This document shows positions 1,331 through 46,573 of a stretch of 64,000 bases of DNA, piece by piece. The DNA lies in contig NC_086107.1 in the NCBI RefSeq assembly GCF_963921235.1, positions 109,742,001-109,806,000 on the forward strand, read 5' to 3'. This DNA is from Mobula hypostoma (Eukaryota). Within the stretch, counting starts at the first letter, position 1. Every line of letters starts with the position of its first letter. Made by a program: the position numbers and the translations under genes. The notes beneath the pieces are model-generated. The model was not told the origin of the DNA and searched no databases. It worked only from the letters and a program-made list of their open reading frames with translations.

Positions 1331-1749
1331 TCGTAAAGTGCATAATTCCCATGGAATTAACCTTGTTAAGCTTCTCTCCTTATTTCAACTGGCTGACAAT
1401 CTGAGTTTGGATAGTCTGGGTATAAAGCCACCAAATCTTCAGAACATTTTTAGTAATGCAAAAAGAAATGATTGTAAATATTACAAGTATATAAGAATTG
1501 TAGTAATGTTTCTCTGATACACTCAGGCTGTATATGGATATAATAGAAGTTTAAAAAAAAATTATACTGAAGTCTTTAATTTCTGTAAAGCGTTTGAGGA
1601 CGTTCCGAAGTGATTTGCAGTGAAGTATTTTGGAAGTGTAGTCGCTGTGGTAAGGTGGAAACTGGTGTGCACATTGCAATGTAACCCTGCCATGGGCGAC
1701 AGTGGAAGCAGATTCAATAGTGGTGTTCAAGAGGCTTTGATACAGGGGC

Positions 1750-2220
1750 ACACACAATGCTGGAGGAACTCAGAGGGCCAGGCAGCATCTACAGAAAGGG
1801 GTAAACAGTCAACATTTCAGGCTGGGACCCTTCTTCGGGACTGGAAAGTAAGAGTAAGAAGATGGGAGGAGGAGAGAGAGAAGAACAAGGTGGCAGGTGA
1901 TAGGTGAAACCAGGGGAGGAGGGCGGGTGAACTAAAGAGCTGGAGGAAGTTCCCTCTGGTGCTCCTCCCCCTTCTCCGACCCTTTATCTCTGTCATCAAT
2001 CAACTCCCCCCCACCCCTCTCACCTATCACCTTGTTCTTCATCTTCCCCTCCCTCCGCCTTCTTACTCTGACTTCTCCCCTACTTCTCCAGTGCTGAAGA
2101 AGAGTCTCAGCCCAAAACTGTTTACTCTTTTCCTTTGATGCTGCCTGGCCTGCTGAGTTCCTCCAGCATTTTGTGTGCGTTGTTTTGGATTTCCAGCATT
2201 TGCAGATTTTCTCGTGTTTA
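1750..2220. mobile_element. two inverted copies of a Penelope-type repeat (hammerhead-motif family)
   Basis: gatgctgcctggcctgctgagttcctccagcattttgtgtg on + (2137-2220) and its complement at 1750-1850, each with a decayed CTGAAGA-AGGG..CCC-GAAA block. Confidence 0.65.
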
Positions 2221-3200
2221 AGATAGGCATTGATTATGCTGGGAATAGAGGGATATAGAAGGGTTTAGGTTAATTTGGCATCATGCTCAGCATGGACATT
2301 GTGGGCCGCAGCACCTAATCCCTTGCTGTACTGTTCTTCAAAAACACAAGAAGGATCATCATATTGAGCAAATAATCTGTTTTAGAAAATGACAATTCAA
2401 TCCCTAAGCCATTTGGTCTTTGAAATAATGCAGTGAACTATTTTCTGTTCGCCTGAGAATAAGGGGTCCTCAGGTTAAAATCTCATCCAGACAATAGCTG
2501 TCTCAACAGTTTAACACACCTTTAGTCCTGCAGTGGAGTGTTGGACTGGATCCTTGCGCTCTGATCTTTGGAGTGAGATTCAAGCCCACAGCCTTGTGAC
2601 TTGGAGGCAACAATGCTGCTAACTGAGTCACGACTGAAGCTAATTATAAGTGGGGTGGGAAATGAACTCAGTAAAAAAAAATTACCTCGGGATGGTGAGA
2701 ACATGGAACTCTCCACAATAGGGTAGGCAAATAAACTGGGTATTTTTAATGGGAGCTAGAAAAGCACATCAGGAGGAAAGCAATAGATGGTTACACTAGA
2801 GGGAGAAGACCTGTAGGCAACACAGATTGGTGGACAAGCTTTATTGAACGACCCTTTTCTGTAACACGAAGAAAACACTGAAAATGTTCAGTCAGGGCAT
2901 CTATGGAGTTCACGTTTCAGGTTCGTGATCTTTCATCAAAGATCATCTTATTTTTACTCCAAATTTCCATCACCTGCAATATTTTTGCCCTTGTGTAGTC
3001 CCTGAACCTCCACCTCGAGCAATATCCACTATTCTCTGGTACTTTTCACAAATAAAAGGGTAAATTTAACTTCTACCTCTATGTTATATTAACTTGTCTA
3101 ACGCACCTTCTACATTAGACCTCCTGGATCAGTTTTGCTTACCCTTGTTCGTTTGCTGGTTTTTGTATTGAAATGTTTTAAATGAACTACTAACATAGGG

Positions 3201-3459: not shown

Positions 3460-3545
3460 ACATAGGGGACCTGATGTTTCATCATGAAGGTTCTGGAATC
3501 GCAGTGAATTATTCTAAAACTGTGCATTGTTTCCATGTTCTACAG

Positions 3546-3667
3546 GTGCTGAGCAGGTACGCCTGATCCCACAGCCGCTGAGGCAGAGCACGCACAATAA
3601 TCGGTCTGAGTGCGGCACACCTCCGCAAGCTAACTGCAGAGATTCGCCATGTGGACAGCAGGTTAAG
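3546..3667 (+). CDS. SCAF1: SCAF1 putative internal coding exon (first in window)
   Basis: ttctacag| acceptor, |gtaagg donor; 122 bp open frame (xAEQVRLIPQPLRQ...GQQVK), phase 1 in / phase 0 out, compatible with the next exon. No recognisable protein homology, so assigned by splice signals and phase only. Confidence 0.6.
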
Positions 3668-3679
3668 GTAAGGTGGAGG

Positions 3680-3960
3680 GCAGAGCGGTAGTGTAATGGT
3701 CAGCACAACGCTTTACAGTACCAGCGACCCGGGTTCAATTCCCACCACTGCCTGTAAGGAGTTTGTACATTCTCCCCGTGACCACATAGGTTTCCTCCAG
3801 GTGCTTCAGTTTCCTCCCCAGTCCAAAGATGTACCAGTGGTAGGTTAATTAGTCATTGTAAATTGTACCTTGATTAGGCTGGGGTTGAATCGGGGGTTGC
3901 TGGGTGGCGCGGCTAGAAGGGCCTATTCCACACAATATTTCAATCAAAATATTATTAAAA
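3680..3960 (+). mobile_element. tRNA-derived V-SINE (HE1-like); related copies near 16965-17255(-), 17495-17750(+), 27035-27295(+), 27650-27890(-), 32990-33270(-), 55990-56275(-), 56705-56930(-)
   Basis: A-box-like gtagtgtaatgg, B-box gggttcaattccc, V-domain ggagtttgtacattctccccgtgacc...tttcctcc..gtccaaaga, AT-rich tail. Confidence 0.75.
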
Positions 3961-4507
3961 ATAAAACATAGGAGCACATTCAGCCCATTGAGTCTGCTCT
4001 GCCATTCCATCATGGCTAATTTATTATCCTTTTCAACCCCATTCTCCTGCATTCTCCCCACAACCTTGACTCCCCTTACTAATCAAGAACCTATCAACTT
4101 CGGCTTTAAATATACCAAATGACTTGGATACAGTTAGCCGTGTCCTGAAGAAGCGTTTCAGCCCGAAACGTCAACTGCTTATTCACTTCCATAGATGCCG
4201 CCTGACCTGCTAAGTTCCTATAGCAATTTATGTGTGTTGCTATGTCCTGATGTGTAGTAGGCATGGGACGGAAGGTTTGACTTCTCCCCAGGTGTTAACT
4301 GGTTAATTTGCTGAGCTGAGAATTTTACTTTTGGTTACTACTTTGTGCATAACTAGCCATTCTTAGTCCAGAAGATTAAAATGGGCTCAACTCCTTTAGT
4401 ACTGTGTTGACAAGCAGCCAGAAGAATTAATATGTCAGGTTGTTGAAAGATCCTTTCCAGCATTTCTAATTTTACTTATAATTTCTGCCCACAATATTTG
4501 GCTTTGA

Positions 4508-5010
4508 ATCAGAATCAGAATCTGTTTTCATGTCATAAAATTAGTTGCCTTCCAGCAGCAGAACAGTGCAATATATAAAATAAGCTACAATACGAAATAT
4601 TTTTAAAAAACAGTGCAAAAGTGTTGAGGTATTGTTCATGGGTTCATGGACTGTTCAGAAATCTGATGGCGGAGGGGAAGAAACCGTTCCTGAGTGTGCC
4701 TCCAGACTCTGGTACACTTCCCTGATGGTAGTCATGAGAAGAGGGAATGTCTGGGTGGTGGGTATCCTGAATGAATGCCGCCTTTTTGAGGCATCAGCTT
4801 TTGCAGGTGTCCTCGATGGTGGGGGAGGCTAGTGCCCATGATGGAGCGAGCTGAGTTTATAAATCTCTGCAGCTTTTACTGATCCTGTACAGTGACCCCT
4901 CCATACCTGACGGTGATGTGACAGCCATAATGCTCTCCATGGTACATCTGTCGAATTTTCTGCAGACTTCGGTGACTTGCCAAATCTCAAACTCGTAATG
5001 AAATATAGCT
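4508..5010 (-). mobile_element. Rex1/Babar-like LINE 3' fragment
   Basis: Starts with the (aatcag)n complement of the tail; homologous to the other Rex1-like copies in the window. Confidence 0.7.
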
Positions 5011-5175
5011 GCTGATTATCTGAATTTGATATTCTGATTATTCCTCCTCACTACTATCCTTCAGATACTGTCTCAGATCTCTTTACTCACTGATACTGTA
5101 ATCATGCTGTCTCAATGCAGACATAATGTTACTAAAGTAGATTGTCTTGACATTATCACATTGCTGTTTGTGGAA

Positions 5176-5670
5176 CATAGAACATAACACATAACACATT
5201 ACAGCACAGTACAGGGCTTTCGGCCCTTTTAACCATCTTTAACCTCCTACAAGGCCCTCCATTTTTTTAAAAATCATCCATGTGCCTATCTTGAATTCTT
5301 AAATACCGCTAATGTATCTGGCTCTACCTCCCCTGGCAGCGCATTCCGTGTACCCACTACTCTCTGCGTAAATAAACCTACCTCTGTACTTTTCTATCCC
5401 CTATACTTTTCTCCAATCACCTTAAAATTATACCCCCTCGTATTAGCCATTTCCACCCTAGTTAAAAAATCTGACTATCCACTCTCTCTGTGCCTGTTAT
5501 CATCTTGTACACCTCTTTCAAGTCGCCTCTCATCCTCCTTCACTCCAGAGAAAATCCCCAGTTTATCCTCGTAAGTCATGCTGTCTAGTTCAGGTGGTAT
5601 CCTGGTCAATCTCTGCACCCTCTCTAAAGCCTCCTATAAAGAGGCAACTAAATCAGAACACAATATTTTG
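5176..5670 (-). mobile_element. CR1 3' fragment
   Basis: acatagaacata tail complement followed by reverse-strand CR1 ORF2 C-terminal remnant. Confidence 0.75.
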
Positions 5671-6414
5671 ATGCCTCAAAAAGGTGGCATCCATCATTAA
5701 GGACCCCCGTCACCCAGGTCATGTCTTGTTCTCATTGGGGGTGAAGTAAAGAACTTGAAAGTTGATTGGTGGAAGAGATAAAGGGCTGGAGAAGGGGGAA
5801 TCTGACAGGAAAGGGCAGAAGACCATGGAAGAAAGGGAAGGAGGGAAAGTAGCTCTTTACTTCACCTCCTTCCCCTCTCCTGGTTTCACCTATCACCTAC
5901 CACCTTGTACTTCTTCCTCCCCCCACCCCCACCCCCACCTTCTTACCTATATTTTCTCTTCCTTTCCAGTCTCGACCCAAAATGTCAACTGTTTACTGTT
6001 TCCTATAGATGCTGCCTGGCTTGCTGAGTTCCTCCAGCATTTAGTGTGTGTGTTGCTTTGGATTTTCATCATCTGCAGACGTCCTCGTGTTTGAATTAAT
6101 TTGAAAGACAGCACTTCCTTGACTACATTGCACTGTCAGTAGTGGACAGGGAGCATTAGGTTAGATTTTGTTCTCCATCCTCTGGAGTAGGACATCTGGG
6201 TCTAAAGACCTCTCATTTAAGCAGTGATTGGCACTGAAGGCTATTAACATGTTCTTGTTCACGGTAACATCAGGCACTGTGAAGTAAAGTGGGTTGGGGG
6301 GAGGAGTGCTACCACGCAAAATAGCATGGAGGTCACCTCTGCATTCTGGATGAATGCAAATGACCTGACAGCATCATTTCATCTTCTGCTAATTGAAACT
6401 TATTTACATTTCAG

Positions 6415-6490
6415 AACTCCCTGCAGTGCTTAAGAGGCATGAACGTGGCCATTCGTGAACCAAATGACTGTGGGAAGATGTGCCAGCGAG
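6415..6490 (+). CDS. SCAF1: SCAF1 putative coding exon
   Basis: acatttcag| ... |gtatcc; 76 bp, NSLQCLRGMNVAIREPNDCGKMCQR, phase 0 to 1, joins in frame to 8123. Confidence 0.65.
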
Positions 6491-8122
6491 GTATCCGTCA
6501 ATGTCCTTTTAGTTTAAATAAGTAGAAATGTTGGAAAGTCTACTTTGTAGATGGAATCTGGGCTCTTTTTGTTTACTCGTATTTCGCACCAGCCCTGAGT
6601 AAGCCCAGTTAAGTTGGATAGATTCAGAGTAATTTTAGAAAGTCAGTATCTTCAAGAGTGGGGGAGAAAATTGTTGGGAGGATGGGGAAATTAGCCTTAA
6701 AATCTTAATAGTGATTGCAAAATAAAAGGGTTTGACCCAAAACATTGTCTTTTTTATTCCCCTCCATGTGCACTGCCTGACTTGCTGAGTTCCTCCAGCA
6801 TTTTGTGTGTGTTGTTCAGGATTTCCAGCACCTGCAGGATTTCCTGTGTTTGAGAGTGGCAGAGTAGTTACTATTCTCCATTTTAATGCCTTCATGTGCA
6901 AATTTGACCCCTTCAGTGATAGAACATGCTCTGGAGTACAAACCTTTGTGTTGCATTGTAAATGTAGCTGTATCATATCCACAAGTCCCTTCAATGCATA
7001 TGTGCACATCATGGACCAAAAGGAAGCCACTACACAGGTCGGCAGTAACCGTTTGGATTTCAGTCAAGAATGGTGATATTCACTTCTCAGCATCGAGTGT
7101 CTAAACTGACATTTGATGCCTTCCGTGTTCTCCATGCAGGGACATAGGCAAATAATTGCACGGTATTTGCAATACTCAGACCTAACCCTGATCATTCTCC
7201 CCCCACCCTCAAAATGTCCTCCATGTCTTTCTCTTCCCAATATTTTATCAAACATCTCCTTAAAACCATCAATGTTTGCCTCAGTTACTAACGTGATTAC
7301 AGGACCACTCGGACTAGAGAATATTTTCCTAATTCCCTCATCAGCAATGCTTATGAAGGTCCTCCATCTCAGGTGGTGTTCAGGGCTTCCTTCACCATGT
7401 CAGTGCTTTCTGTTTTCACTACTCTCAGTCATGCAAGTCCCAGATGGAGAATCAGGAATAATGTACTCATTGTTGTTTCCATAACAATTTTGTTTTACCA
7501 GGTTGTTAGCCCTGAGCTGAACCCCTGAACTTGGAGGACTGGTGGACGACTCTTACTCTGTCCTCTGCCCTTTGACCTGTTTTGCATGGGCGACCCCACC
7601 AACATCCATTAATGACAATCTGCATTTGTGGCTCTAGATTTAGACGCCCAGGAGAAATCTGATGACATTGGAGTGGGAAAGCTTACTAAATCTCCAATGG
7701 GGTCTATTAAAGGGACGAATATTGGCAGTTAAATAGAATCTCTTGCTGTGGTAATGTTTTCATTGTGGAAAGAAATTTGAGAAGCAGTCCTCTGGTGAAG
7801 TGAAGGTTAGGACAGAAATCACGAATACTTCTGATAAATTGTGAATAATTTTGAAGTAAGTATGATAAGCTTGTTAGACAGAAAAAACGGGTGTAAGATT
7901 GCCAAAAAAAAGCAGATGAATTTTATTTCCCATTACGAGTCTGAAAAGGACAGTAGAAGCCACTACAATAGCAATCTCTAAAAGACAATGGGATAGATGG
8001 TCAAAAAAAAGTTTACAGTTCTGTATGGAGAACAAAACAGAAGATAAGAGAAATTGGCGTCTCTCTCTTGGAGCTGTCCTCTGAGAAACTATGATTTCTT
8101 TTTGTGGCCCTTCTTCCTATAG

Positions 8123-8241
8123 ATTCCAGGAAAAAGAAGCAGATTAGACGACGAAAGGTGTGCATGCCTGTGGAATCCAACGTCGCCACCAGAAACTCGC
8201 CAGAGGCTGCAGTGCCCAGTCTCCATGGGAACGGGAACCCG
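8123..8241 (+). CDS. SCAF1: SCAF1 putative coding exon
   Basis: ccttcttcctatag| ... |gtaagg; 119 bp, DSRKKKQIRRRKVCMPVES...GNGNP, phase 1 to 0. Confidence 0.72.
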
Positions 8242-8544
8242 GTAAGGCTCCTGAGTGGACCCTTTGAAGATTAATTAGGGTTGATTGAATCCACCCTGTG
8301 AAGCATCTAAGAACATGAGGACTGCCCAGTAAGTTATCCAATTACCGTTCTCCCAATTGGAAAATACAACAGTAGTGAACCTGTTCGCTAATCATAGTAC
8401 TGAGAATTCACCAGTGAATCTACAGCAGGCACGGATCTGTGTGCTGGCCACTTTAGCCACCTGCTCCCGTGAAGCCATTCAGTGTTGCAAGTTGCTGATG
8501 CAGGTCCTCACCAGGTTACCAATGAGTCCTGTTCCTGTAAGCTG

Positions 8545-9510
8545 GTCAGTGCGGATCGACAATAGTATCTCCTCCTCACTGACATTCGGTGCAGGCATAC
8601 CTCAAGAACTTGTGCTTAGCCCACCGCTCAACTCCCTCTATACTTTTGACTGTGCTTCGGTACAGCTCATCTATAATTTTGCCAACTGTTCTGGCAGAAT
8701 CTCAGATGATGACGAAGAGGACTTACAGGAGTGAGATAGGATCAGCTGGTTGAGTGGTGTCGCAACAAAAATCTCACGCTCAACATTAGCAAGACCAAGG
8801 AATTGATTGTGCCCTTCAGGAAGGGGAAGTCAGGAGTACACACACTGAGGGGTCAGCATTGGAAAGGGTGAGCAGCTTCAAGTTCCTCGGTGTCGACATC
8901 TCAGAGGATCTATCCTAGGCTCAACATATTGATGCAGTCTCGAAGAAGACACGCCAGTGGCTATACTTCATTAGGAGTTTGAGGAGCTTTGTTATGTCAC
9001 CAAAGACTAGAACAGTACCACAGATGTACCCTGAAGAGCATTCTGAGTGGGATCGTCACCACAGATCTACTCTGAATGGGTACATCTGAGTGGGCTTATC
9101 CCCGTTTGGTGTGGAGGCTCTAATGGATCGCAAGAAGCTACAGAAGGTTATAGACTCAGCCAGCTTTATCACAAGCCTCCCCGCCATTGCAGACATTTTC
9201 AAAAAGTGGTGCCTCGAGAAGGCAACATCCATCATTGAGAGCCCTCACCATCCGAGACATGCCCTTGTTAGTCCCATCAGGGAGGAGGTACAGAAACCTA
9301 AAGAGAATGCACACTCAGCTGTTTTAAAAGCAGCTTCTTCCCTTCCGCCATCAGATTTCTGAACGGTCCATGAGCCTCATTATTCCTCTTTTGCACTATT
9401 TATTTATATCTTATTGCAACTTATAGTATCTTCGCCTTGCCCTGTACTGCTGCCACAAACCAACAATTTCACGACGTACGTCAGTGATAATAAACCTGAT
9501 TCTGATTTGG
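8545..9510 (+). mobile_element. Rex1/Babar-like LINE fragment (decayed RT)
   Basis: GIPQELVLSPPLNSLYTFDC-like RT remnant; 3' end aataaacctgattctgatt. Confidence 0.8.
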
Positions 9511-9973
9511 TTTGTAACTCAGATCAACCGAGTTCCCACAAGGCAGACGATGCCTGCAGCTCTGTAACAGCTGGTAGGTTCATCTCGCCCCAGAATGCTT
9601 GTTTCCATGTAAGGGCTGTACCTGAATTGGGTGTTTCCAACCTGGGGTGGACCTGCATTCCATTATTCCCCCCAAAAAATGTTCAAAGTAAATTTATTCT
9701 CAAAAGTACATATCTGCCACCATTTTCTTGCGGATATTCACAGTAGAACAAGGAAATACAATAGAATCAATGAAAAACTACACACAACCATGACTGATAA
9801 ATAACCAATGTACAAAAGATGACAAACTGTGCATATACAAGCAAAGAAAATTATAATAAATAATACAAAATTTGTTAAGAATAATAATAACAAAAAACAC
9901 TCCCCTTGACTTTGAGTGAATCAACAGTGCTTTCACTGATTACCTTCCTTCTCTGTATTTCCTCCCTTCAAAG

Positions 9974-10110
9974 GAGAAAGAAGTGGTATCAGTTCTACTG
10001 TCCCATCTCAGCAGTGCGCTACAGCACATCGGATCCACATATGGAGCCACCCTGCGGACACGGCTGAACCCGGAGCCTGAATCTGTTGCCGATCTGGGCC
10101 CCTCTTATTT
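9974..10110 (+). CDS. SCAF1: SCAF1 putative coding exon
   Basis: tttcctcccttcaaag| ... |gtaaga; 137 bp, EKEVVSVLLSHLSSALQHIGS...DLGPSY, phase 0 to 2, matches the phase of the 14840 exon. Confidence 0.72.
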
Positions 10111-11209
10111 GTAAGAACAATTTCTTTCTGAATCTGATTGAATCAAATCTCTCTTGTCATTTGCACATCCCCTGCAATGTATTTCAGTTCTGACTGAATA
10201 ATCAAGTAAGAACTTGCATTTGCGTATTTCCTTTCACAATCCCATAATGAAAAGAGTATCTAATTGTACCAAGTTCTGCTCAGCCAGTGAAGTGTTTCAA
10301 CAGCAGATTCACCATTCTACTGTAGGACACACCACAGCTGATGGACAAGTAGGCTTTTACAACCAGCAGTTTGGGATTTATTTTCTTGGGTGATTTTGGT
10401 TAAGAGAAAAATAACAGTTTAGTTTGGGTAGCCTCCAACCTAATGGCATGAATATCGATTTCTCCTTCTGGTAAAAAAAAATCACTTTCCCTTTACCTCC
10501 CCTCTTCTTCTATTTCCTCAAACTGACCTTTTACTTCTTTTCATCTGCCTATTACTTCCCCCAGGTCCTCTCCTCCTTCCCTTTCTCCTATAGTCCACTC
10601 TCCTCTCCTGTCAGATTTCTTCTTTTCCAGCCCTTTACCGTTCCTACCCACCTGGCTTCACCTGTTACCTTCCAGCTAGCTTTCTTCCCCGCTCCCCACC
10701 TTTTTTTATTCTGGCGTCTTCTCCAGAATGGGATGCCTGTTAGATTGATCACTGACCACCTTCTTATTTGGGGGCTTGTGGGTTAGAATCATACGTTGTA
10801 GAAACAAGCAATTTGGCCCCTGTCTCCGTATTGAGCATTCATACCCACCTCTACTGATCCCATTTGCTGGCACCAAGTCTGAAGTTTTCAGAGCTTTGGC
10901 TATTCTAGTGCTTTTTCAGATAATTAAGTGTCAGAGTATATCTCCATCAACCATGTTCGTGCCCAAAATCAATCATTGTCTATGTATTTATATGACATAG
11001 ATCATCTAGTCTCATTCTAGTTCCAGATAGACTTGACTTGCTTCATAGGGTCAGATTTGAAGGCCAAATACAGGGTTAATGGCAGGATTCTTGGCAGTGT
11101 AGAGGACCAGGGGGATCTTGGGACCCACATCAACTGCTCACTCAAAAAAGTTGCTATGTAAGTTGATATGGGTTGTTCAGAAGTCATATTGGTGTGTTGG
11201 CTTTCATAA

Positions 11210-12390
11210 GACATAGGAGCAGAATAAGGCCATTCAGCCACCAAGACTGTTCTACTGTTCCAGCATGGCTGATTTATTTTCCCTTTCAACCCCATTCTTT
11301 TGCCTTTTCCATGTAACCTTTGATACCTTTACTAATCAAGAGTTTCTGCTTTAAATATATCCAGTGATTTGGTCTTCACAGCCATCTGTGGCAATGAATT
11401 CCACAGATTGACCACCCTCTGGCTAAATAAATTCCTCTTCATCTCTGAAACATTTTTCTATTCTGAGGCTGTGCCCTCTGGTCTTAGAAGCACTATAGGA
11501 AACATACTCTTCTCATCCACTCATTTAGGCTGTTCAGTATCCGATAGGTTTCAGTCAGATCTCCCCTCGTTCTTCTGAACTCCATTCGAATACAAGCCCA
11601 GAGCCATCAAATACTCCTCATATGTTAACTCTTTCATTCTTGAGATAATTCTTGTGAACCTCCTCTGGATCCTCTCCAATGCCAGCATATCCTTTCTTAA
11701 ATTGCATTTGCCTTCCTTGCTACTGACTCATCTTGCAAATTAACCTTCAGGGAATCCTGCACAAGGACTCCCAAGTCCATTTGTACCTCTGATTTATGAA
11801 TTTTTTTCCCCTGTTTAGCAAATATTCTACACCTTTATTCCTTCTACCAAAGTGCATGATCATACACTTCCCTACACTATATTCCATCTGCAAAATCTTT
11901 GCCCATTTTCTTAATCTAAGTCCTTCTGCCTTCTCCCTCTTCCTCAACACTACCTGCCCCTCCATGATGTATAACATGAAAAGAGGTGGTCCCAACACCA
12001 GTCACTGGCAGCCAACCAGGAAAAGGCCTCCTTTATCCCCACTCTTTACCTCTTGCCAGTCAGCTAATCTTCTATCCATGCTAATATCTTTCTTGTAATA
12101 CCATGGGCTCTTGTTTAGCAGCCTTATGTGTAGTATCTTGTCAAAGGTTTTCTGAAATCCAAGTAAACAATATCCACTGGCTCTCCTTTGTCTATCTTGC
12201 CTGTTACTTTCTCAAAGAATTCCAACAGATTTGTCAGGCAAGACTTCCCCTTTAGGAAACTATTCTGACTTTGGCGTACTTTATCATGTGCCTCCAAGTA
12301 CCCCGAAACATCTTCCTTAATAATGGGCTCCAACATCTTCCCAACCACTGAAGTCAAGCTAACTTGCCTACAATTTCCTTTATTTTGCCT
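11210..12390 (-). mobile_element. decayed CR1 fragment
   Basis: TSVVGKMLEPIIK...KGKSCLTNLLEFFE...DIVYLDF remnants on the minus strand. Confidence 0.85.
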
Positions 12391-12394
12391 TATT

Positions 12395-12965
12395 TGTCAG
12401 GGGATTGAGTTCAAGAGCAGCGAGGTAATGTTACAGCTCAATAAAACCCTGGTTATTCCGCACTTCGAGTAACAGTTCTGATCACCGCATTACAGGGGGG
12501 ATGTAGATGTATTAGAGACAGTTCAGAGGAGATTTACAAGGAATCCTCTTGTACTAGAGGCTTATGGAGTTAGGTTGATAGAGCTAGAGCTTTTTTCTTT
12601 GGCGCAAAGGAGGATGAGAAGTGGTTTGCTAGTGGTGTACAAGATGCTAAGAGGCATAGGTCAAGTGGATAGCCAGAGACTTTTTCCCAGGGCGAAATGG
12701 CTATTACAAGGGGACAGAATTTTAAGGTAACTGGAGGAAAGTATATGCGGGATATTAGAGGTAAGTTTTGTTGCACAGAGTAGCAGGTACCTGGGATGCC
12801 CTGCCAGGGGAGGTAGAGACAGATACATTAGGGCCATTTAAGAGACGTGCACATGGATGATAGAAAAGTGGAGGGCTTTGTAAGAGGGAAGGGTTAGATT
12901 AATTTTAGAATAAGTTAAAATGTTAGCAGAACATCATAGGCCAAGGGGTCTGTACTATTGTACAT
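12395..12965 (+). mobile_element. CR1 3' fragment
   Basis: gggattgagttcaagagc...; homologous to the 52327-52955 copy. Confidence 0.75.
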
Positions 12966-12990
12966 TTTATAACTCCAACAGGAAAAAAAT

Positions 12991-13031
12991 GTCACTTCTT
13001 GGCCATTTGGTTAAGATCAAGTATAATATCT
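12991..13031 (+). pseudogene. 3'-truncated U2 snRNA copy (U2 nt ~1-41)
   Basis: gtcacttcttggccatttggttaagatcaagtataatatct aligns ungapped at 34/41 with the U2 5' end ATCGCTTCTCGGCCTTTTGGCTAAGATCAAGTGTAGTATCT. Confidence 0.8.
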
Positions 13032-13286
13032 ATAGAACCTCTCCAACTAAGTAAAATGTCCCAAAGGTTCTTGCAACATTGGTGTCAAACAAAATATTGA
13101 CAAGAAATCAAATGGAGATTTGATAGGACAGGGTGGTTTTAAGGAGAACCTTAAAAGAGGTACTAGAGGTTCAAAGGTTTATGGAGGGAATACCCAAGTT
13201 AGCAGCTGAAGATATGTTTGAAAGTGGTAAAGCAATTTAAAATACGTATGCATAAAGAGCCATAATTGAAATTGGGTTGGCTGCTT

Positions 13287-13732
13287 GTTTGTAGAGTTGT
13301 TTGCCGAGTTGGAGGTTAGGTTGCAAATGTTTCGTCACCAGTCAAGGTGACATTGTCAGTGCGCAGTTGAATGTTGTTTTTGCCGGGTGCTCATGTTTAT
13401 ATTGGTCTGACTCATTGTTCTGATTGGTTGGCTGTCATACTGGCCACTAGTCTCCACTGCCCTGTATTCCTGGATGTGATCGAATGACAAATGGGGCAAG
13501 AGAAAGGAAATTGGTAGGCAAGCTTGGTTCTCAATGGAGGACTCTTATTAACAAGTATATTGAACTAGATGCAATTTACAGACTTGTATGTCTGCGGATC
13601 AGGGCCAAGGGGTGAGCTGCAGACACCCGAGAAGTCAATGCTCACAACGATTGAAGCAACATTCAATTGTGCACTGAGGGTGACCAAATGCTTGTGACTT
13701 AACTTCCAGGCTCAGCGAACAACCCTACAAAC
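13287..13732. mobile_element. Penelope-like element remnant with inverted pseudo-LTR ends
   Basis: Imperfect ~85-bp inverted repeats (13287-13376 vs ~13658-13732); internal frameshifted QAWFS..S/INKYIELDAIY resembles the C-terminus of Penelope GIY-YIG ORFs; hammerhead-like motif in the repeat. Confidence 0.72.
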
Positions 13733-14839
13733 GAAAAGCAATAATTTCTTAAATCATCCAGTCATTTCTCGGCTGGAGGTAGATATGAAAATTGGGACAG
13801 GCTTGACATATGGGGTGATTGGAATACTCAACTTCCCTTTCTATAACATAGGTTATATAGATCCATAGATCAACCTGTGAGAACGATGACTAAATGAGTT
13901 GACAGGATACAGCGGGAAATGCTTTTTCCCTTGGGAAAGTGCAGAACGAGGTTGCACACCTTAAAATCAGAGTCTAGTCATTCAGGGATAATGTCTGCTA
14001 GCAACTCTTAAATGTTGATCTCTGTGGATAGGAAAGGCTGATGGGCCTAGGTTCTAATGGAAAATGTCAGACTAAGATTGAGGGATTTCTTTTTGAATTT
14101 GGTAATGACAGTGGAGCCATAACAGGGAGATGAGTTACAGTGTTGATCAGCTGCAGTGGCTTGGCAGAACAGAGCAGAGTGGTTGCCTTCTGCTCCTGTG
14201 GCTCTGATGTCTGGCCCAGCTCAGTGCTAGGTGATACCTCCGTCCCATTCATCATAAGGAAATAGATTTCCATCATTACCCAGTAGTAAGATGCAAGGTC
14301 AAGAGCTGTCTGTCTGCAGCTGAGTATGGTGGGTAAAGTTAACACAACACCACACACACAAAATACTGGAGGAACTCAGCATGTCAGGTAATATCTATGG
14401 AAATAAATAAACAACCAACGTTTCAGGTTGAGACCCTTCTTCAAGACTGACAAGGAAGGAGGAAGGCAGGAGGAGGAAAAGGTGGTGGTGGGGGGAGAAA
14501 AGAGGATTGCTAGAAGGTGATCAGTGAAGTCTGGTGGGTTGAAAAGATAAAGTGCTGGAAAAGGATGAATCTGATTGGAGAATGGACCATAGGAGAAAGG
14601 GAAAGAGGGGGGAACCTAGAAGGAGGTGATAGGAAGGTGAGATAAGAGGTCATGGAAGAAGAGGAGAGAGGCAGGGAAATTTTTACTGGAAGGAATAAAT
14701 CGATGTTCATGCCATTAGATTGGAAGCTACCCAGGCGGAATATAAGGTTAACATAGCTTGCTTTCATGTGGCTGAGGTCCGTTCGAGGGAAAACTCAACA
14801 TGTTGCATGCACTTCTTTGATGTCTGTGCTCCTATCTAG

Positions 14840-14976
14840 TGGCAGGTTAGAGCCAGAACACACAGAAGAGACGACAGATTTGCAAGAAGATGGTGTTTCC
14901 AGTCTTGGCATCCGTTTTGTACGTCACCCCGGGTTTGTTGTTAAGAGAGATCGGACCTGGCGATATAACAAGTCAG
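14840..14976 (+). CDS. SCAF1: SCAF1 coding exon
   Basis: ctcctatctag| ... |gtgggg; 137 bp, phase 2 to 1; ends RTWRYNKS|V, resembling human SCAF1 RAWRTGKT-V just before the large exon (from recall). Confidence 0.78.
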
Positions 14977-15119
14977 GTGGGGAAATGTTCCTTTTTTCTC
15001 TGTGCATGTGTGTCTCACTCTCACGTTCTCTTTTACTCCCTCTCAGTGCATTAAACACAGGCTGCAGTGAAGGTTTGAATGTTTAATGTACAGTAAGATA
15101 CTTTTGTTTTTAATTGCCT

Positions 15120-15520
15120 ATTACTCCCCTGACAATTAGGGCAGCAATGAAGATCCTCCATCTGTGACGGTGTTCACAGCTTCCTTAATCGTTTCAGTAG
15201 ATTCCTCTCCGTTTTCACCACTGTCAGTCATCCAAGTCCCGGTGGAGACTCAGGAAGACCATCACACTCAGATGTAGAAGGATTCTTCATTGCTGTTTCT
15301 GTAACAATTTTTTTTTTGACCAATCAGGGTTGTTAGCCCCAGCTCCGAACCTGGGCGATCAGTGGACCACTCTTAGTCTGGCCTCTACCCTTTGACCTGT
15401 TTGGCATGGGTGACCCAACCAAGAGCCAAAACACAAAGCCCTGACTTCAGCCAACATAGTTCTCTGAGTCATTGAGGCGCGCAAGCCTCCAAACTCTACA
15501 ACAAGGTTGTGGTCCTCTTG
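15120..15520 (-). mobile_element. RTE-derived non-autonomous element; other copies ~7340-7600, 25041-25430, 49259-49660
   Basis: Shared ~400-bp sequence (ttagggcagcaatgaag.tcctccatct ... ttagtctggcctctaccctttgacctgtttggcatgggtgaccc); RTE-like 3' end with (taag)-type tail on the minus strand. Confidence 0.65.
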
Positions 15521-15816
15521 CAGGACATTAAGATAATTGCACTATAATTCTGTGTTGTAAGCATTATACCTAATATTTTTGCACCATTCCTCTATTCTTA
15601 CTCTTAGAGTATAAACTGTTAATTTTATTTTTATTTGTTTAAGGTTGTCCTGAGCAGACTTCAAATGTCTGACATGTATGATTGTCATTGTTTATATAAA
15701 AAGAACATTTTAATATCTGCTGCATGTGTTTACTTGGCTGCTTATTCTGGCTAAACATGTAGCCACTGGAAAGGGATTTTTATTTTTCAAATTATGTTTC
15801 CCATTGTATAATCATA

Positions 15817-16310
15817 GACTCAGTGGCCACTTTATTAGGCACGGAAGTGGAATCTGCGTGGTCTTTTACTGCTGCCGGGCTCATCCACTTCAAGGCTCAA
15901 CGTGTTGTTCATTCAGAGATGCTCTTCTGCACACTACTGTTGATTATTTGAGTTACTGTCACCTTCCTGTCAGCTTGAACCAGTCTGGCCATTCTTCCCT
16001 GACCTCTCATTAACAAGGCACTTTCACCCACAGAACTGCTGCTCAATAGATGTTTGTTTTTCGCACCATCACTGTGAACTGTAGAGACTGTTGTGTGTGA
16101 AAATTGCCCTGCCTAGCACCAACAGTCATTCCACAGTCCAAATGTGATCTCTGAGATCACATTTCTTCCGCATTCTGAAGTTTGGTCTGAACAACAACTG
16201 AGCCTCTTGACCATGTCTGCATGCTTTTATGCATTGTTGCTGCCACATGATTGGCTGATTAGATATTTGCATTAACGAGCAGGTGTACCTAATAAAGTGG
16301 CCATTGAGTG
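15817..16310. mobile_element. non-autonomous Tc1/mariner element; related copies 31088-31600 and 62834-63100
   Basis: TIRs actcagtggccactttattagg / cctaataaagtggccattgagtg with TA on both flanks. Confidence 0.85.
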
Positions 16311-17799
16311 TAATTACCAGCAAGTTTACTTGGGTGCTTTCTCTGGCTAAACACTTTGATGGAGACTATGGAAATGGAATTTTAGTTATTAAATTGTTTT
16401 TCCTGTTGTATAATCATATGCTAGAAAAAGTGAAGTAGCCTTAAGGAAAATCAAAGTTCAATTCATGGTCTAAACTTTTTGTTTAGCAGTGTAACTAGGG
16501 ATTTGGCAATGTAGTGTAATTCCTGCATCAGGTGAGACTCAGTTTGCTCTTTGCTGTATTGTTCTTCAACGTTAAATAACTTAGTTATTTAATCTTGTAG
16601 GGTATTTATTTATTTAGAGGTGCTGCGCAAAGTTGGCCCTTCGAGTTGCACCGCCCCAGCAAACCCCGACAACCCCAATTTAACCCTAACCTAATCACTA
16701 GCTTGTGTTGGGAATTGCTTATGTCACGTGCCCCATGTTTTTTTTATCATGCCTCGGTGTTAATTCTAGATATTCCAAGATGTCCAGGCAATTTAATGCT
16801 CTTAAAATGAGGTTCCCTTTCTAATGTAAGGCTGGAACTTTTGACCACTTGGTATGATGGCTAGTCATTGTATACAAGGTGAATTCTGGATTCAAAGCAG
16901 TAAGCACCTTTTTTTTTAATACAGTAGGTCCGCCTGGTTTTTGACTTATCCAACCCAATTCTATTTATTTATTTAGTGATACCATATGGAATAGGTCTTT
17001 CCGGTCCTTTGAGCCACGCCACCCCATCAACCCCACAACCCCCAATTAACCTAACCTAATCATGGTACAATTTACAATGACCAATTAACCTACCTGGTAT
17101 ATTGTTGGACTGTGGGAGGAAACCGGAGCACCTGGGAAAAACCCACACATTCCACGGCAAGGATGTACAGAGACTCCTTGCAGAAGACGACGGAATGGAG
17201 CTCCAATGCCCCAAGCTGTAATAGAGTCGCGCTATCTGCCGCACTACTGTGGCTCCCTCTAGTCCAGAAGCAGCGTATATTGTTTTAGGGTAAGATATCA
17301 GCCACTCAAGATTGAAATTCCCTCAGATATCTGGAAACCTTTGGCAAGACCAATAAAATTCAGATGAAAATTACGCTTGAGGGGATTGATCAAGAAAGTG
17401 GAATTTTAAGCAAAGATCAGATTAGCTGCAATCCTGTTGAACCCCACAATTGGTATGAGGGTCCGAGTGACGACTCCTGTTGTAATCACTGGGGTCTCCA
17501 TAGCGTAGCGGTTAGCACAGTGTTTTTACAGTTGTGAAGTTCAGGGTTCAGTTTCGGTGCTGTCTTTACAGAGTTTGTAATGTTCTCTCTGTGACCACTT
17601 GCATTTTGTCCGGGTACTCCAGTTTCTTCCCGCCATCAGTTAGCAGGTTAATTTTTCTGTAATTAGGCTAGTGTTTAATAGGTGGGTTGCTGGGCAGTGT
17701 GGCTCTTTGGGCCAGAAGGACCTGTTCCGCGCTGCCTCTAATTAAATAAAATGTAAATTAAAAAATATGGGAATAGTTAAGGCTTTGGACAAGAACTTG

Positions 17800-18197
17800 T
17801 GCCCAGGCATTGACTTGATCGAGGTGTACAAGGTGTTAAGAGGCTTAGATTGGGTGAACAGCCAGACCTTTTCCCAGGGTGGAAATGGCTAATACGAGAA
17901 GTACAAGAAATGGAAATGGCTAAAGTGATTGGAGGAAAGTATAGGAGGTGGGTCAGCGGTAAGTTGCTTTTTTTTTTATTACATGGAGAGTGGTGAGTGT
18001 GTGGAACGCGCTGCCAAGGCTGGTGGTAGAGATAGATACGTTCGGGACACTTAAGAAACTCTTGGATAGGCACTTGGATGATAGAAAAATGGAGGGCTGT
18101 GTGGGAAGAGTTAGACTGAATCTTAAAGACAGGTAGAAAGTTTGTCACAACATCATGGGCCGAAGGGCCTGTACTGTGCAGTACTGTCTATGTTCTA
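17800..18197 (+). mobile_element. CR1 3' fragment
   Basis: Ends gggccgaagggcctgtactgtgcagtactgtctatgttctatg. Confidence 0.78.
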
Positions 18198-18463
18198 TGG
18201 CCTCCGGTGACTCAGTCACCTTACCCAGTATATTTCAGAGAAACTATGGGTGGACCTTGTGTTTGGCAGATACAACACCTCCTCGTGACTTGAGACTCTT
18301 GTCATCACAGCTGAGCACCACTACAACTCAGGAGGCTTGGGCAAACTGCCTCAAGATAAGATTCCTCTGTGTTCTATAGAAGCGGTAGAATAGGATTGAG
18401 GGAAGGTGAACCCACCACGTCTTTTCGGATTGATGCTAAGTTTTTCTTTGTTTCTCCTTGCAG

Positions 18464-21400
18464 TGTCCAGTGGCTTTCCATCTCCGTCACTGAGGGTACC
18501 GTCTCAGAGCATCGTAAGGGAAGCTTTACCTTTCAGGAATTGCTTATGCAGTGGTGGACTGTCCAACACAAGGAACAGCGGAAGCCATTCCATGGAATCC
18601 CACGGCATGAAGAAGGCGAACGATGGGTTGGGTCTGTTGGATTCATACGCTTTGTCACCAGCATCCTTGGACTGCCTGAGGCAAGGGTTGCTGAGAAACA
18701 TGGGTAATCTGGAGCAAACTGAGACTTTGGGGGACTCGAGAACGAGAAACCCCGATACAAGGACAGAGAAGAGTAACCAGCCAGTGGCTACAGGCTTCAA
18801 AGCATCCGTTTTCTCCCCCAATGTAGACTTGACAATGAAAAGAAGGCTGGATCCATTGGGGGTAGATCTCATTTGCCTATCACCGAGAAGCAACAGGCTC
18901 GGTGTGCTTGTGAATCCGAGCACAGATCAAAAGCCGATGGCTGATTCTCCTATAAAAAGGCTTGTGGGTACTACCCAGGGCTTGCATCCCTCTGAAGGGG
19001 TCAGTTGGGGCATAGTCCTTGGCAACGGTAGTGGTATCTCAAATGGTCAGCAACGGCCATTAAACGGAGGTGGCTGCTCCAACTCAGGGAACCAACCCAG
19101 CTCATCTAGCATGCCTCAAACGTGTGAAAAGACAGAGTCCAGTTCAGTCCCTTGCCACCAGAGCGTCACTAATCGGATTAGTTGTTCTGACAGTCGACTG
19201 AGGCCTGAAGCCTATGACCCATTCAATCCAACTGATGAAGAAAATATTAACGGAGAGTTTATAGGTGGTGACTTTTCGCCGAAAGAAAGGACGGGCTTGG
19301 ACGATGAGGAGGAGGAACCCGAGGAGGACGACGAGGAGAAGTATGACCCGTTTGACCCTACGGGTTCCATCGCAAGTTCAAACAACTTGAGCCCAATGGG
19401 AGATGACTCCGAAGGTGAGCTGAAAATTGTTAGCGATGCCGGGCTAACCGAGGAGGAAGAGGAGGAGGACTGCATGAGCCCTGAGTACGAGATGGAACGG
19501 TCCCCAGAGTCGACGACGTGCGTGTCATCAGATGTAGAGCTACGGCCTGACTGTGGGCATGCGGTCAAGTCAAACCTAGAACCTGACCTCTACAGTTCGC
19601 CCGAGTGCGGAGACGCACAGCCGGAGTCCCACGCCAGCTTTACAGAGTTAAGCTCCACGATCGAACCTGATTCTAAACTTCAGAGTGAGGCTCAGCTTGA
19701 CTCAATCTCTCAACCAGACTCCAACTCGGTTGACTCAGAAGATGATACTCAGTCCCAGAATGAACTGATGATAGATGAAACAGCCTGTGCAATGTTTGAA
19801 GGTGAAGAGCCAGTGTCATCACCAATGGATTTTAGCTTGATGCATAATCCTGATCCAAAGATGAAAGAAGAGCCTGAGTCATTAAAGGTTATGGAGAAAC
19901 AGGTCCATCCCTTGGAAGAGGGTGACCCTTGGAAAAGTGAACAAGCGAAGGAGCCAAGCCTTAAAGGAAAGATGAGCACTGGTCCCACAGAAGCTTCCAA
20001 ACACAAAGTGGCTTCAGATCTGCAGAATGCACCCAGGTATCAGAAGGACTCTGAAAAGGTGGAGTCTGAGATGGCAGGAACACACAAATCCCAGAGCCGG
20101 TCTGCAGAAAAGATGAGCTCAAGTGGTCGGGTGGGATCAAAGTCGGCGTTGAAGCAGCGCTCGAGAGCTGAAGCCGTACGGAAGGATAAATCTGGTGGTA
20201 AGGGGCACTCGAAGGCAGAGCACAAAAGCAAGTCCTCTTCTACTTCCAGGTATCACCACAAGTCCCACCGTACCGTGGAGAGAAAAGACAACCTTGTCTT
20301 CACGGTGAATGTCTCCAAGTGGCCAGACGATGCACACAAGTACGAAGATTCTGAAATCGAAGAAGGTGAGATTGTCCAACAGGATGAAGAGAACTTCAGC
20401 CCGGCCAGGACCTTTCGCACTCGAGGGCGGATTTTTGAGCGTCTAAGAGGAGTTGAAGGGGACGATTTTATTTCCCTTCATGCCGACTCTGACGAGGGGG
20501 CGTTGCAGATTGACCTGGGTGAAAACTCGACGGAGGGTGGACGGAAGAAATTAGACCGCAGGAGAAAGGTGACAAATCAACAGAGAGAGAAGGTGCCGAA
20601 ACACTCGAGGTCACCAGCAGAATCCAAAGGCCAGTCCGGCTCCCACTCGGAGTCCAGCTCCCGCAGCCGGAAAAAACGCAAGCGGGAACACAAGAAGACC
20701 CGATCGAAGGACCGGAAGCGATCCAGGTCCCAGTCTCGTGAGCGCAAAAGGTCCACGTCCCGAAGCAGATTGCGAATCCATCACAAAAAGTCCCGGTCGA
20801 GATCCAGGTCCTGGGAACGAAGGCGGTCGAGCTCCCGATCACGTCATAAGGTGTCCCGGTCTCGCACCCGTTCCAGGGAGCACCGAAGGTCTAGATCCTG
20901 GTCACCCTCCATCAGCACCAGCATGTCGGCTCTGGGCTCCATGAGAGCTTCGGCTGAGAGGTGGAAGGGCCGCCCGCCCCCGTCAAAGGAAAGTGGGTCA
21001 TTCCACCGTTCCCGCTCGAGCAGCAAGTCCAGGAAGGAAAGGCGCAAGAAGGAGAAACATCGAGAGGTGGAAGCCTCAAAGCGCCGAAGGCATTCAAGGT
21101 CAAGGTCCAAGGAGAGGTCCCAGAGGGAGAAGAGACAGCCCAGCCCTTCCCCTAGAAGGTCAAAAGAAAAGAGCGAAAAAGAGAAGGACAAGAGTAGAGA
21201 GAGAAATCCTGTGAGTGAAAAGAAACACGAGAAAACTACAAAGGGAAGGCGTGACAGCAGGATAGTGGTTCCTCCTTCGATTCAGGAGCTGAATGATGAT
21301 GACATTCTAATTAAAGCTCGCTCTATTACCAGAACCATTACTGTGAACCCAGGGGAGGCCATGGAAGACCAAGACGATTCAATGGAAGTGGCAGCCCTCT

Positions 21401-22501
21401 CCCCAAACCGGGAAGCCATTTATGACTCGGATGAATTGGGCTTTGAGAACAGCTTCTCCGATGTGGAACCAGCTGACCACTTGCAGGAGGGCAGGGTGCC
21501 GGGGAAGGGGCCAGACGGCAAGAATGAGAGGAGGAGTGTTCACGAGAAAAGCCACCGAGTGGGAGAGACTGGCGCTAAGCTGACCAAAGTGAAGGACCGA
21601 AAGAGAGCTCACCCGGAAGAGAAGCCTACCAAGGAGAAGCGAAGGAAGAAGCTAACCGAAGGGCAAAAGGGGCCAGTTGCGACAGACAGCCTGAAGACTG
21701 AAAAGAAGGCTAAAGAGCATTTAATCGGTGGTCAGTCTGCCAAGAAAATCAAGGCACCATCCAAGGAAAGCAAGCAACAGGTGCCTCGGAAAGTCAAACT
21801 CCAGTCAAAGGTAGCCGTTCTCATCCGGGACGGAGTGAGCTGCGCTGCCTCGATGAAGGAGGACCGCGGGAAGGGGGGAGGTTTAATCGGCGTGAAGTTC
21901 AGCCGGGACAGGGAGAGCAGGTCACCGTTCATGAAGACCGAGGAGAAGGTCCACGACTCGAAGCCCAGCCGGCACCGGGCTGAGAGCTCGGACAGCAAAA
22001 GCACTCCATTGCGGGTAGTGAAGGGGAAAGCCACGGTGAAGCAGCGGTCGGCAGCAAAGAAGGCCAAGGCAGCTGGTGGGAAGGCCAAGGGCTCTGGGAA
22101 GAAGAAGAAGGAGGCCAAGGCCAAGATTGCCCTGAAGAAGGCTGCATCTGATAGCAGCAGCAGCAGCAAGGACTCCAGCCCCTTCAGGAACAAGGAAGAG
22201 CTGCAGTGGTCTTCCTCGGAGAAATCTGATGACAAAGTGAACCTCCCGAGCCCTGTGAAGGACACGGTGGAGCAGGGACTGTCCCCCCTCTCTCAGATCT
22301 CCGAGAGTACCTCCCAACCCCTGGAGCCGGCCTTTGTGCCAAAGGAGCCCCCACAGCACCAGCCTCCTCCACCACCCCTCCCTCAACAACCGAAGGATTA
22401 TCATGAGCACAGCGACACTTCAAAGGTCAACGGGGATAAACCAAGAACACTGAACAAACCACTGTCATGGGACCTCCAGACAGGAGGAGGAATGTTAGCA
22501 C
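18464..22501 (+). CDS. SCAF1: SCAF1 giant exon (acidic, RS-rich and Lys-rich low-complexity regions)
   Basis: Strong acceptor tttttctttgtttctccttgcag| and donor |gtaagt; 4038 bp open frame containing SCAF1 signature blocks YDPFNPTDE, YDPFDPTGS, SEIEEGEIVQ, EGDDFISLHADSDEGALQIDLGE, VVPPSIQEL, KVKLQSKVAVLIRDGVS, IGVKFSRDRESRSPF. Confidence 0.95.
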
Positions 22502-22595
22502 GTAAGTATTCTTGGCAAGAAGTGTACTCTTTTTTGAAGAAGAACAGTGGGAGGGGGATGTTCTCATTGAAACTTATTGAATATTGAAACATCTA

Positions 22596-27700: not shown

Positions 27701-28642
27701 CCAGTTCCACCAACCCCACAACCCCGATTGAGCCCAACCTAATCACAGGAAAATTTACATTGACCAATTAATTATCCAGTACATCTTTGGACTTGGGGAA
27801 AACCAGTGCATTCCATGGGCAGGATGTACAGAGACACCTTACAGAACGTCGCAGGAATTGAACTCCAAACTCCAGAACGCTCCAATACCAAGATCTTTAT
27901 TGAAACTGCATCATTGTAAGGGAATGTCCAGTTTTTTTGTTTTTACTCTTCCTTCATCCCCCAGAAAACTGCATAAGTTTTGTTGCTCAGTCCATGGAAT
28001 TGTTGAATGGTCCAGTACAGGAGGAGGCTGTTTAGACCACCCAGTGAAAAACGTTCCTTTTAACCTGTCTTTTTCCTTTCATCATAGTCCTGGATTATTA
28101 TATTATATATTAGTAAGATAATATATGCAGCACCAGTGGTGTCCTGGGTTCAATTCTGCTGCTGTCTGTAAGGAGTTTGTACATTCTACCTATGGTCTCC
28201 TCCATTTTCCCACATTCCAAATGGTTTGTATGTTAATTGGTCACATAGGTGTAATCGGGAGGGGTGGGCTCGTTGGGATGGAAGAGCCTGTAACTGTGCT
28301 TTATCTCAAATAAATAAATTAGTTTTCCTTCCTGTTTATCCAAATCCCATTTAGGCAGGAAGTGCCCACACTGGGCTGTTGTTCAGTGAACTCCCCACTG
28401 GGAATCTCAGTGAGAAGCTGGTGCTTAAATTCTACCAAACTGGTGCAGAAACAGGCTTTTGCTGCCAGACCTTTGTCCACAATATAATTCTACTTGTTCA
28501 CTGGGCTGTGGCAACCTCGTAGTGACTTGACTTAACAGCTAGAATTCTGGGCTGTTACCTCTATTATGGCAGCTGAGGAATTTAAGATTCTGTTAATTAA
28601 ATATGGATCTTATTTAATAGAAAGAAATCTTATCTTGGTTAT

Positions 28643-46568: not shown

Positions 46569-46573
46569 TGCAG

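Follow-up and report, generated by a model that had tools for sequence, protein, structure and literature searches.

The stretch of DNA analysed here (64,000 nucleotides from Mobula hypostoma, called the window below) contains ten mapped coding exons of SCAF1 on the forward strand and the last two coding exons of an IRF gene on the reverse strand. The large SCAF1 exon is 100% identical to a Mobula hypostoma protein (P0131), of which residues 1-31 were not found in the window; relatives in sharks and amphibians go by the name SCAF1 or splicing factor arginine/serine-rich 19. We take the IRF gene to be IRF3, from its tail-to-tail position beside SCAF1, as at the human locus. Interspersed with the exons are copies of one dispersed repeat. 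Ten copies were used to build a profile, which finds 17 repeat segments in the window but gives no match when the window is reversed; a divergent copy at 2885-2940, read by hand, brings the total to 18 pieces, among which the piece at 26500-26547 is the split-off end of the copy at 26089. A preliminary description had listed about 14 copies. All 14 are real: 13 are among the profile segments, and the one at 2910-2940 lies under the cut-off and was recognized by hand. Four further pieces (5969+, 6726+, 25702- and 26500+) were absent from that list. The statement that no copy in the window is perfect holds as well, as none has the core, both stems and the palindrome all intact. The genes and copies are as follows, with the position of the first core base given as C3 where it is known.

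3545..46753, forward strand: SCAF1, ten mapped coding exons (residues 32-1790 of P0131)
61298..62640, reverse strand: IRF gene, last two coding exons, with an IRF-3 domain; gene end at about 61298
1748..2222: back-to-back pair; 1748-1948 (reverse strand) without tail, C3 at 1838, U4 changed; 2005-2222 (forward strand) with tail, C3 at 2094, a 6-nt deletion, G12 lost
2885..2940, reverse strand: short divergent copy (U3, G17)
5845..6093, forward strand: repeat copy (the 5969+ piece)
6726..6855, forward strand: copy truncated within the core; sense in SCAF1
10418..10716, forward strand: frame end and 3' region, stopping short of the hammerhead
14345..14750, reverse strand: longest copy, with the last frame codons, a pyrimidine-rich 3' region of about 240 nt, the hammerhead (C3 at 14444, U3 variant, all helices pairable) and the 3' end; antisense to SCAF1
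25603..26547: complex insertion of an inverted copy, 25603-25728 (reverse strand), a copy with tail, 25774-25927 (forward strand), and a partial-tandem copy, 25930-26143 (forward strand), which a 355-bp unrelated repeat separates from its 3' part at 26500-26547; three cores, all broken
37066..37390, reverse strand: copy with 3' region and tail; core 12/12, deletions damaging both stem I strands
38020..38150, reverse strand: protein-coding fragment, C-terminus of an RT and GIY-YIG protein, without hammerhead
55505..55740, reverse strand: younger-subfamily copy with tail, between the SCAF1 and IRF genes; the reference for the public contigs
57960..58030, forward strand: short divergent copy starting at C3, between the genes; core 12/12, helices lost
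61532..61739: back-to-back pair in the last IRF intron; 61532-61613 (reverse strand) truncated within the core; 61625-61739 (forward strand) with A6 and U16.1 lost
62135..62270, forward strand: younger-subfamily copy, antisense to the IRF gene, starting at the outer edge of stem I and without G8 and G16.2
63775..64000, reverse strand: copy in an IRF intron, sense, reaching past the window end; without G12 and A15.1

Insertion hallmarks and neighbouring repeats

The copies are variably truncated at the 5' end, and they include three back-to-back pairs and one partial tandem. Only one partner carries a tail in two of the three back-to-back pairs, and this optional tail is the 37 nt between two 3' ends. 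Target duplications of 10-13 bp (p up to 0.02) accompany four of 14 units: the copy at 4142, which is discussed below, the longest copy at 14345..14750 (10 of 11 letters), the fragment at 38020..38150 (10 of 10) and the copy at 62135..62270 (12 of 13). The two short copies delimited by such duplications both start at stem I or at the first core letters. By eye, about six of the 17 pieces start between -5 and +8 of C3 (4142, 57960, 62135, 2940, 61613 and 6726). In the long copies, a pyrimidine tract followed by CAG resembles a 3' splice site and ends inside the 5' strand of stem I (25800-25804, 61632-61636 and others); among the joints listed for the outside contigs described below, none corresponds to splicing at this CAG.

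The segments 55505-55641 and 62135-62270 are about 92% alike and form a younger subfamily, with a U-G outer pair in stem I and mostly C at N7. The copy at 26089-26095 combines U3 with A8, as does the paired core variant reported for Schistosoma elements, and has lost A14; the combination is likely to represent two chance transitions.

Other mobile sequences occupy the window. Remnants of Tc1/Sleeping Beauty-type transposases (HTH_SB, HTH_Tnp_Tc3_2 and DDE_3 domains) lie at 22870-23880 and 40840-41205 on the reverse strand, and an inverted repeat at 3196-3464, with 120-nt arms that are 93% complementary and 29 nt apart, is similar to a miniature DNA transposon. A second dispersed repeat at 3680-3950, with copies near 17013-17185, 27668-27847, 32982-33254, 55995-56171 and 56763-56869, presumably belongs with the tRNA-derived SINEs and appears HE1-like to us. 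A match to the 5' part of U2 snRNA at 12991-13113 on the forward strand (33.5 bits, below Rfam's 46) is likely a truncated pseudogene. In a SCAF1 intron, a fairly intact LINE fragment on the reverse strand at 29207-30886 contains an open frame of 559 amino acids, in which an RVT_1 domain is recognised at E 2.7e-34. This frame was ruled out as the parent of the repeat, as none of 120 Penelope proteins matches it.

The parent element

The proposed derivation of the repeat from a Penelope-like pseudo-LTR is borne out by a reading-frame end that is continuous with the repeat and matches proteins with reverse transcriptase (RT) and GIY-YIG domains. A single profile match, 14749-14341, runs from the frame end through the hammerhead, and in the longer copies a pyrimidine-rich stretch upstream of the motif leads back to the frame end, with the motif about 240 nt behind it. 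The frame in the window comprises the last 40 or so codons only, and within the window we found neither a full-length parent nor two pseudo-LTRs around one frame. The fragment at 38046-38150 has 11 protein matches in a full HMMER search, eight of them at 56-69% identity; the other three (P0001, P0002 and P0009) are repeat-rich surface proteins and were set aside. A word-based protein search with the 47-aa fragment gave no matches.

In P0008, a protein of the ray Hypanus, the RT motif reads YIDD, and both a GIY-YIG motif and a CX2-5CxxC linker are present. The closest relatives of P0008 are ray and shark proteins; it matched no Pfam family at E 0.05 and no solved structure. The whale shark protein P0018 matches RVT_1 and GIY-YIG, and the Mobula protein P0012, to which the fragment at 38020..38150 is 64% identical over 42 amino acids, matches GIY-YIG slightly below Pfam's cut-off. 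In the zebra-shark protein P0021 the frame continues past GIY-YIG into a peptide matching the translation of the motif. The CX2-5CxxC linker, common to the Neptune and Nematis clades, is found in P0008, in P0012 and in 63 of 120 relatives; 73 of these relatives have the GIY-YIG motif, among them all 63 with the linker. Since a preprint found Neptune and Poseidon in vertebrates, the parent likely belongs to Neptune, an assignment made from the linker and that survey.

Four host gene models, P0003, P0007, P0014 and P0016 (GEMIN8-like, VKOR-like and two named ray genes), contain pieces of the element frame, either through faulty annotation or because copies were exonised. A 28-letter stretch of the repeat had no exact match in viral and metagenome contigs, and a scan of contig collections with P0012 returned 29 distant loci, none of which matches the repeat profile; ray DNA was absent from the results of these scans. 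At one of them (L013:1615, reverse strand) a minimal hammerhead-like motif with a 7-bp stem II lies on the strand opposite a distant Penelope RT fragment. The Atlas provided leads only, all under 0.9.

The hammerhead motif in the window and in outside contigs

The family motif consists of a 5-bp stem I, CUGANGA, one extra base, a 4-bp stem II, GAAA and a palindromic ACGU. The preliminary description had read this as a minimal type I hammerhead of the dimer type, and the core, the helices and the palindrome agree with that reading, as do outside contigs that restore the family letters. Each of the 12 core positions is kept in 10-14 of the 14 copies that hold both core halves, and every base of CUGANGA ... 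GAAA, U16.1 and H17 is the majority letter among these 14. Helix I has 5 bp, helix II is closed by G10.1-C11.1, an extra base follows A9, and helix III is absent, the ACGU palindrome being the family majority. A strict descriptor of core and stem II matches twice in the window; across 100 first-order Markov controls the mean was 0.01, and no control reached two. In an Rfam search up to E 10 we obtained 18 weak matches to other families and none to a hammerhead; the Rfam hammerhead models expect a stem III.

Energy calculations predict the hammerhead as the lowest-energy fold of the family motif, at -10.5 kcal/mol and with a probability of 0.59. The predicted double hammerhead (-19.3 kcal/mol) lies above two monomers (-21.0) and above the best dimer fold (-24.2), so the energy models do not favour a double-hammerhead dimer. 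Three pair types occur at the last pair of stem II, but the covariation score of these 14 decayed copies, which 66 of 500 shuffles reach, is not above shuffles. The C-G pair that had been pointed out in stem II of the 61634 copy is real; however, it results from a one-sided change in a copy without A6 and U16.1. Similarly, the consensus letters given earlier describe the motif well overall, but C17-G1.1 is not a strict majority in the window: positions 17 and 1.1 read CG in one, TG in three, CA in three and other letters in two of the nine indel-free window copies. The split columns trace to four CpG sites, among them C11.1-G12 and C17-G1.1, and C17-G1.1 is a CpG-aware reconstruction, which the outside contigs confirm.

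The copy at 4142, on which the preliminary description had centred, is composed of the following features.

4142..4241, forward strand: 5'-truncated Penelope-like 3' end in a SCAF1 intron, sense; it stops at the shorter 3' end, without tail
4145..4172, forward strand: hammerhead core with 12/12 core bases, three of four stem II pairs and the family cut site after 4172
4137..4148, forward strand: left candidate target-site duplication, with 10 of 12 letters in common with 4239-4250, eight of them exact in a row
4239..4250, forward strand: right candidate target-site duplication, paired with 4137..4148

In this copy C3 is at 4145, CUGAAGA at 4145-4151, stem II at 4153-4164, GAAA at 4165-4168 and C-G-U-C at 4169-4172, with the ACGU palindrome at 4168-4171. 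It had been described as keeping the whole core on weak stems, and we agree: all 12 core bases are present, and stem I retains two of five pairs and lacks the 1.1-2.1 pair. The pairing probability predicted for both helices is at most 0.01. The loss of stem I appears to be due mostly to truncation at this point. The left duplication (p 0.02 when compared with 3000 random pairs) extends over stem I and into the first letters of the core; if the two segments are a target duplication, then the 5' strand of stem I is mostly host sequence, a full stem I was never present, and the junction may have formed through a short match between target and element. It is likely that this copy was cut short inside stem I at insertion and so never folded. 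The copy at 62140 likewise begins at the outer edge of stem I.

As a family-wide test of the consensus, contigs from four public runs (four of 22 listed, representing four organisms and four studies; 5429, 5963, 840 and 1974 contigs aligned) were aligned to copy 55636 on the reverse strand, which departs from the hammerhead at five places. All four runs restore the hammerhead letter at four of these, and three of the runs also restore it at the fifth, C17, so the expectation that the family consensus keeps the hammerhead was upheld. Measured by depth, the hammerhead letter accounts for 95-98% at A15.1, for 96-100% at the two 5' positions of stem I (55639 and 55640) and for 81-99% at position 1.2 (55607) across the four runs; C17 is read in 84-90% in three runs and in 33% in the run X14. 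The 80% cut-off used for the alignments disfavours changes from the reference, which makes the restored letters a conservative result; the same cut-off favours the motif wherever the reference agrees with it from the outset, and depth in contigs does not equal copy number.

N7 varies freely across the outside contigs. The change of G12 to A reaches 7-12% in three runs and 28% in X14, and the change of C11.1 to U, which retains a G-U pair, reaches 31-41% across all four (32% in X14); at other core places no change of 10% or more is seen among the rows listed. These two changes affect one CpG, at 55616-55617, and the first base is changed three to five times more often than the second in three runs and about equally often in the fourth, an imbalance that hints at selection on catalysis in parent lineages. 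Two 3' ends, 37 nt apart, are indicated by loose contig ends, at 55503-55507 in four runs and at 55542-55543 in two. None of the listed runs is recorded as RNA, and the contigs therefore carry no information on expression. A ten- to twenty-fold step in depth near the cut site was set aside, given that the reference has three mismatches there and that contig depth cannot show RNA ends.

Retrotransposition, cleavage and the host genes

We hold with high confidence that the repeat is the 3' pseudo-LTR end of an EN+ Penelope-like element, that its motif is a minimal type I hammerhead, and that the copies are truncated and mutated leftovers. By analogy with published elements, the parent would be transcribed from its pseudo-LTR and its GIY-YIG domain would nick the target. 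The hammerhead would cut after C17 only if two motifs pair through the ACGU palindrome or if a protein of the element aids folding, and the ray parent may cut weakly there, either as a dimer or with its own protein. Single minimal hammerheads were reported to be inactive and dimers to have low activity (PMC4209133), and cleavage in PAc, a Penelope element of the anole, required the element protein (PMC11167929). Reverse transcription probably begins at two internal positions of the RNA, located 66 and 103 nt behind the cut site; this would yield copies with or without the 37-nt tail, and copying would usually end early, often at or inside the hammerhead. The copies span the cut site, which implies that the template is uncut or re-joined RNA. 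Decay after insertion is fastest at the four CpG sites, one of which includes the catalytic G12. The in vivo role of minimal hammerheads is described as still open (PMC8557442, PMC11167929).

The likeness to a hammerhead could be due to chance in an unrelated repeat, a notion to which the Rfam result and a covariation score within the range of shuffles lend something, but to which we give almost no credence. The outside contigs, the Penelope protein matches and the descriptor controls contradict it. Both helices and the full core occur together with the palindrome, G10.1-C11.1 and the additional base that follows A9, all at the site which the motif occupies in Penelope elements, and Fig. S3 of PMC4209133 contains layouts almost identical to this one. 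An alternative that is compatible with both the Penelope and the hammerhead identity is that the parent retains the motif mainly as a folding, docking or splice signal and that self-cleavage is incidental. In the experiments described for PAc, core mutants still inserted in vitro and no RNA-seq read started or ended at the cut site (PMC11167929), the ray copies also extend across the cut site, the starts of the two duplication-delimited short copies coincide with stem I or the first core letters, and the pyrimidine tract with CAG in stem I resembles the Drosophila virilis Penelope intron, which ends at helix I (PMC4209133). However, the catalytic bases are retained in the outside contigs, the tolerated change of C11.1 exceeds that of G12 within the same CpG in three runs (in X14 the values are 32% and 28%), and none of the 11 joints listed skips from stem I to a point upstream, the loose ends at 55638 being read as unspliced. 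We consider this explanation rather unlikely. The short copies might also form a non-autonomous family of their own, similar to SINEs or retrozymes, whose members start at the hammerhead and rely on the Penelope enzyme. The cluster of starts around C3, two of them fixed by target duplications, would fit such a family, and retrozymes derived from Penelope ends have been reported, including one in a cartilaginous fish (bioRxiv 10.64898/2026.07.22.740005). Yet other copies begin at many points as far back as the reading frame, the short copies fall into two or more subfamilies, and we saw no fixed monomer repeated head to tail in the window, where the sole tandem is partial and decayed; a separate family therefore appears very unlikely.

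The intronic copies were previously thought to give SCAF1 and IRF3 pre-mRNAs potential self-cleavage sites. The placement is largely correct: 15 of the 17 hammerhead-bearing pieces lie within the two genes, eight in sense and seven in antisense orientation (three placed by inference, upstream of the first mapped exon), but 55636 on the reverse strand and 57960 on the forward strand are intergenic, between the SCAF1 stop (after 46753) and the IRF stop (at about 61298) and outside coding-region introns. The idea that these sites are usable is not supported. A copy can act only from the strand of its host gene, each of the eight sense copies is without stem I, some of the core or a catalytic base, and the only close pair on the same strand (25807+ and 26089+, 282 nt apart) has both cores broken. 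With CpG sites left out, mismatches to the majority amount to 12 of 90 in the core and 33 of 264 in the downstream block (p 0.86; nine indel-free copies, eight for the downstream block); the equal decay of core and flank indicates that the copies decay without visible selection after insertion. A comparison of sense and antisense cores had been suggested, and the three best-kept copies are indeed all antisense; however, the full-span copies number only five in sense and seven in antisense (one-sided p 0.09), and a p of 0.015, obtained when three truncated sense copies are scored as zero, reflects a choice made after the data were seen. Sense copies are not depleted, and single minimal motifs are inactive in vitro (PMC4209133). 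That the intronic copies work as self-cleavage sites affecting SCAF1 or IRF3 pre-mRNA is thus hardly credible, and, every sense copy being broken, the window copies likely do not cut host RNAs.

The preferred reading, decayed ends of a Penelope-like element with a minimal hammerhead, places the repeat close to systems that are already known. Like the minimal hammerheads of Cervera and De la Pena (2014; PMC4209133), the motif is of type I without helix III, has a helix I of 4-5 bp, an extra base between 9 and 10.1, the G10.1-C11.1 pair and a palindromic 15.2-16.2, and it is preceded by a pyrimidine-rich flank; that study also noted copies that are mostly single and truncated, and pairs on opposite strands separated by 100-700 bp. 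In its Fig. S3, Acropora (Neptune) and Ixodes are shown with the same GAAA-C-G-U-C layout. The ray family differs in that cartilaginous fish are absent from Table S1 and Fig. S3 of PMC4209133, its 4-bp helix II is at the short end of the range given there, and its density is high (17 pieces in 64 kb). As in PAc, a Poseidon element of Anolis carolinensis (Frangieh et al. 2024, PMC11167929), stems I and II lie in the pseudo-LTR, two internal reverse-transcription starts, putative in the ray, bound a tail of 30-40 nt, and insertions cover the cut site. Unlike PAc, the ray parent has the linker of Neptune and Nematis. Protein-assisted cleavage was demonstrated for PAc. The Neptune-clade EN+ elements of Craig et al. 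(2021, PMC8557442) share the RT, the Zn-finger-like linker and the C-terminal GIY-YIG, together with the Penelope hallmarks of 5' truncation, partial tandems, an inverted 5' partner and a tail at one end.

Animal non-LTR retrozymes (bioRxiv 10.64898/2026.07.22.740005) are similar in being hammerhead repeats from Penelope ends, with one cartilaginous fish genome among those reported, but they are described as tandem arrays with at least two complete motifs, whereas the ray copies are dispersed, continuous with a frame end and broken, and their one partial tandem has two broken cores. The intronic hammerheads of amniotes (RECK and others, PMC6155905) are likewise of type I and thought to derive from retroelements; these are canonical, conserved and found at single loci, in contrast to the minimal, multi-copy ray motifs, which have no helix III, match no Rfam hammerhead and decay at the rate of their flanks.

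The arrangement of a Penelope pseudo-LTR with a minimal hammerhead was already described in 2014, and the novelty implied by the preliminary description was too high. In our literature search, to which subscription papers, repeat libraries and preprint supplements were mostly external, we found no account of this ray family, and the association of minimal hammerheads with Penelope elements is here extended to a family from a ray. In kind the family is ordinary, but its copy number in the ray genome allows simple tests. Such a copy-rich genome could be used to test the strand bias of intact intronic cores, to compare tolerated with lethal changes at one CpG, and to compare the starts of short copies with stem I. 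A further thought, which we regard as quite unlikely, starts from a great abundance of the Penelope hammerhead in rays: intronic sense copies that are young and intact would cleave the host pre-mRNA in the presence of the element protein or of a second copy, and selection would remove or break them. If this were true, then rays would show a genome-wide antisense excess of intact cores, and their genomes would provide a direct, population-scale test of minimal hammerhead cleavage in vivo.
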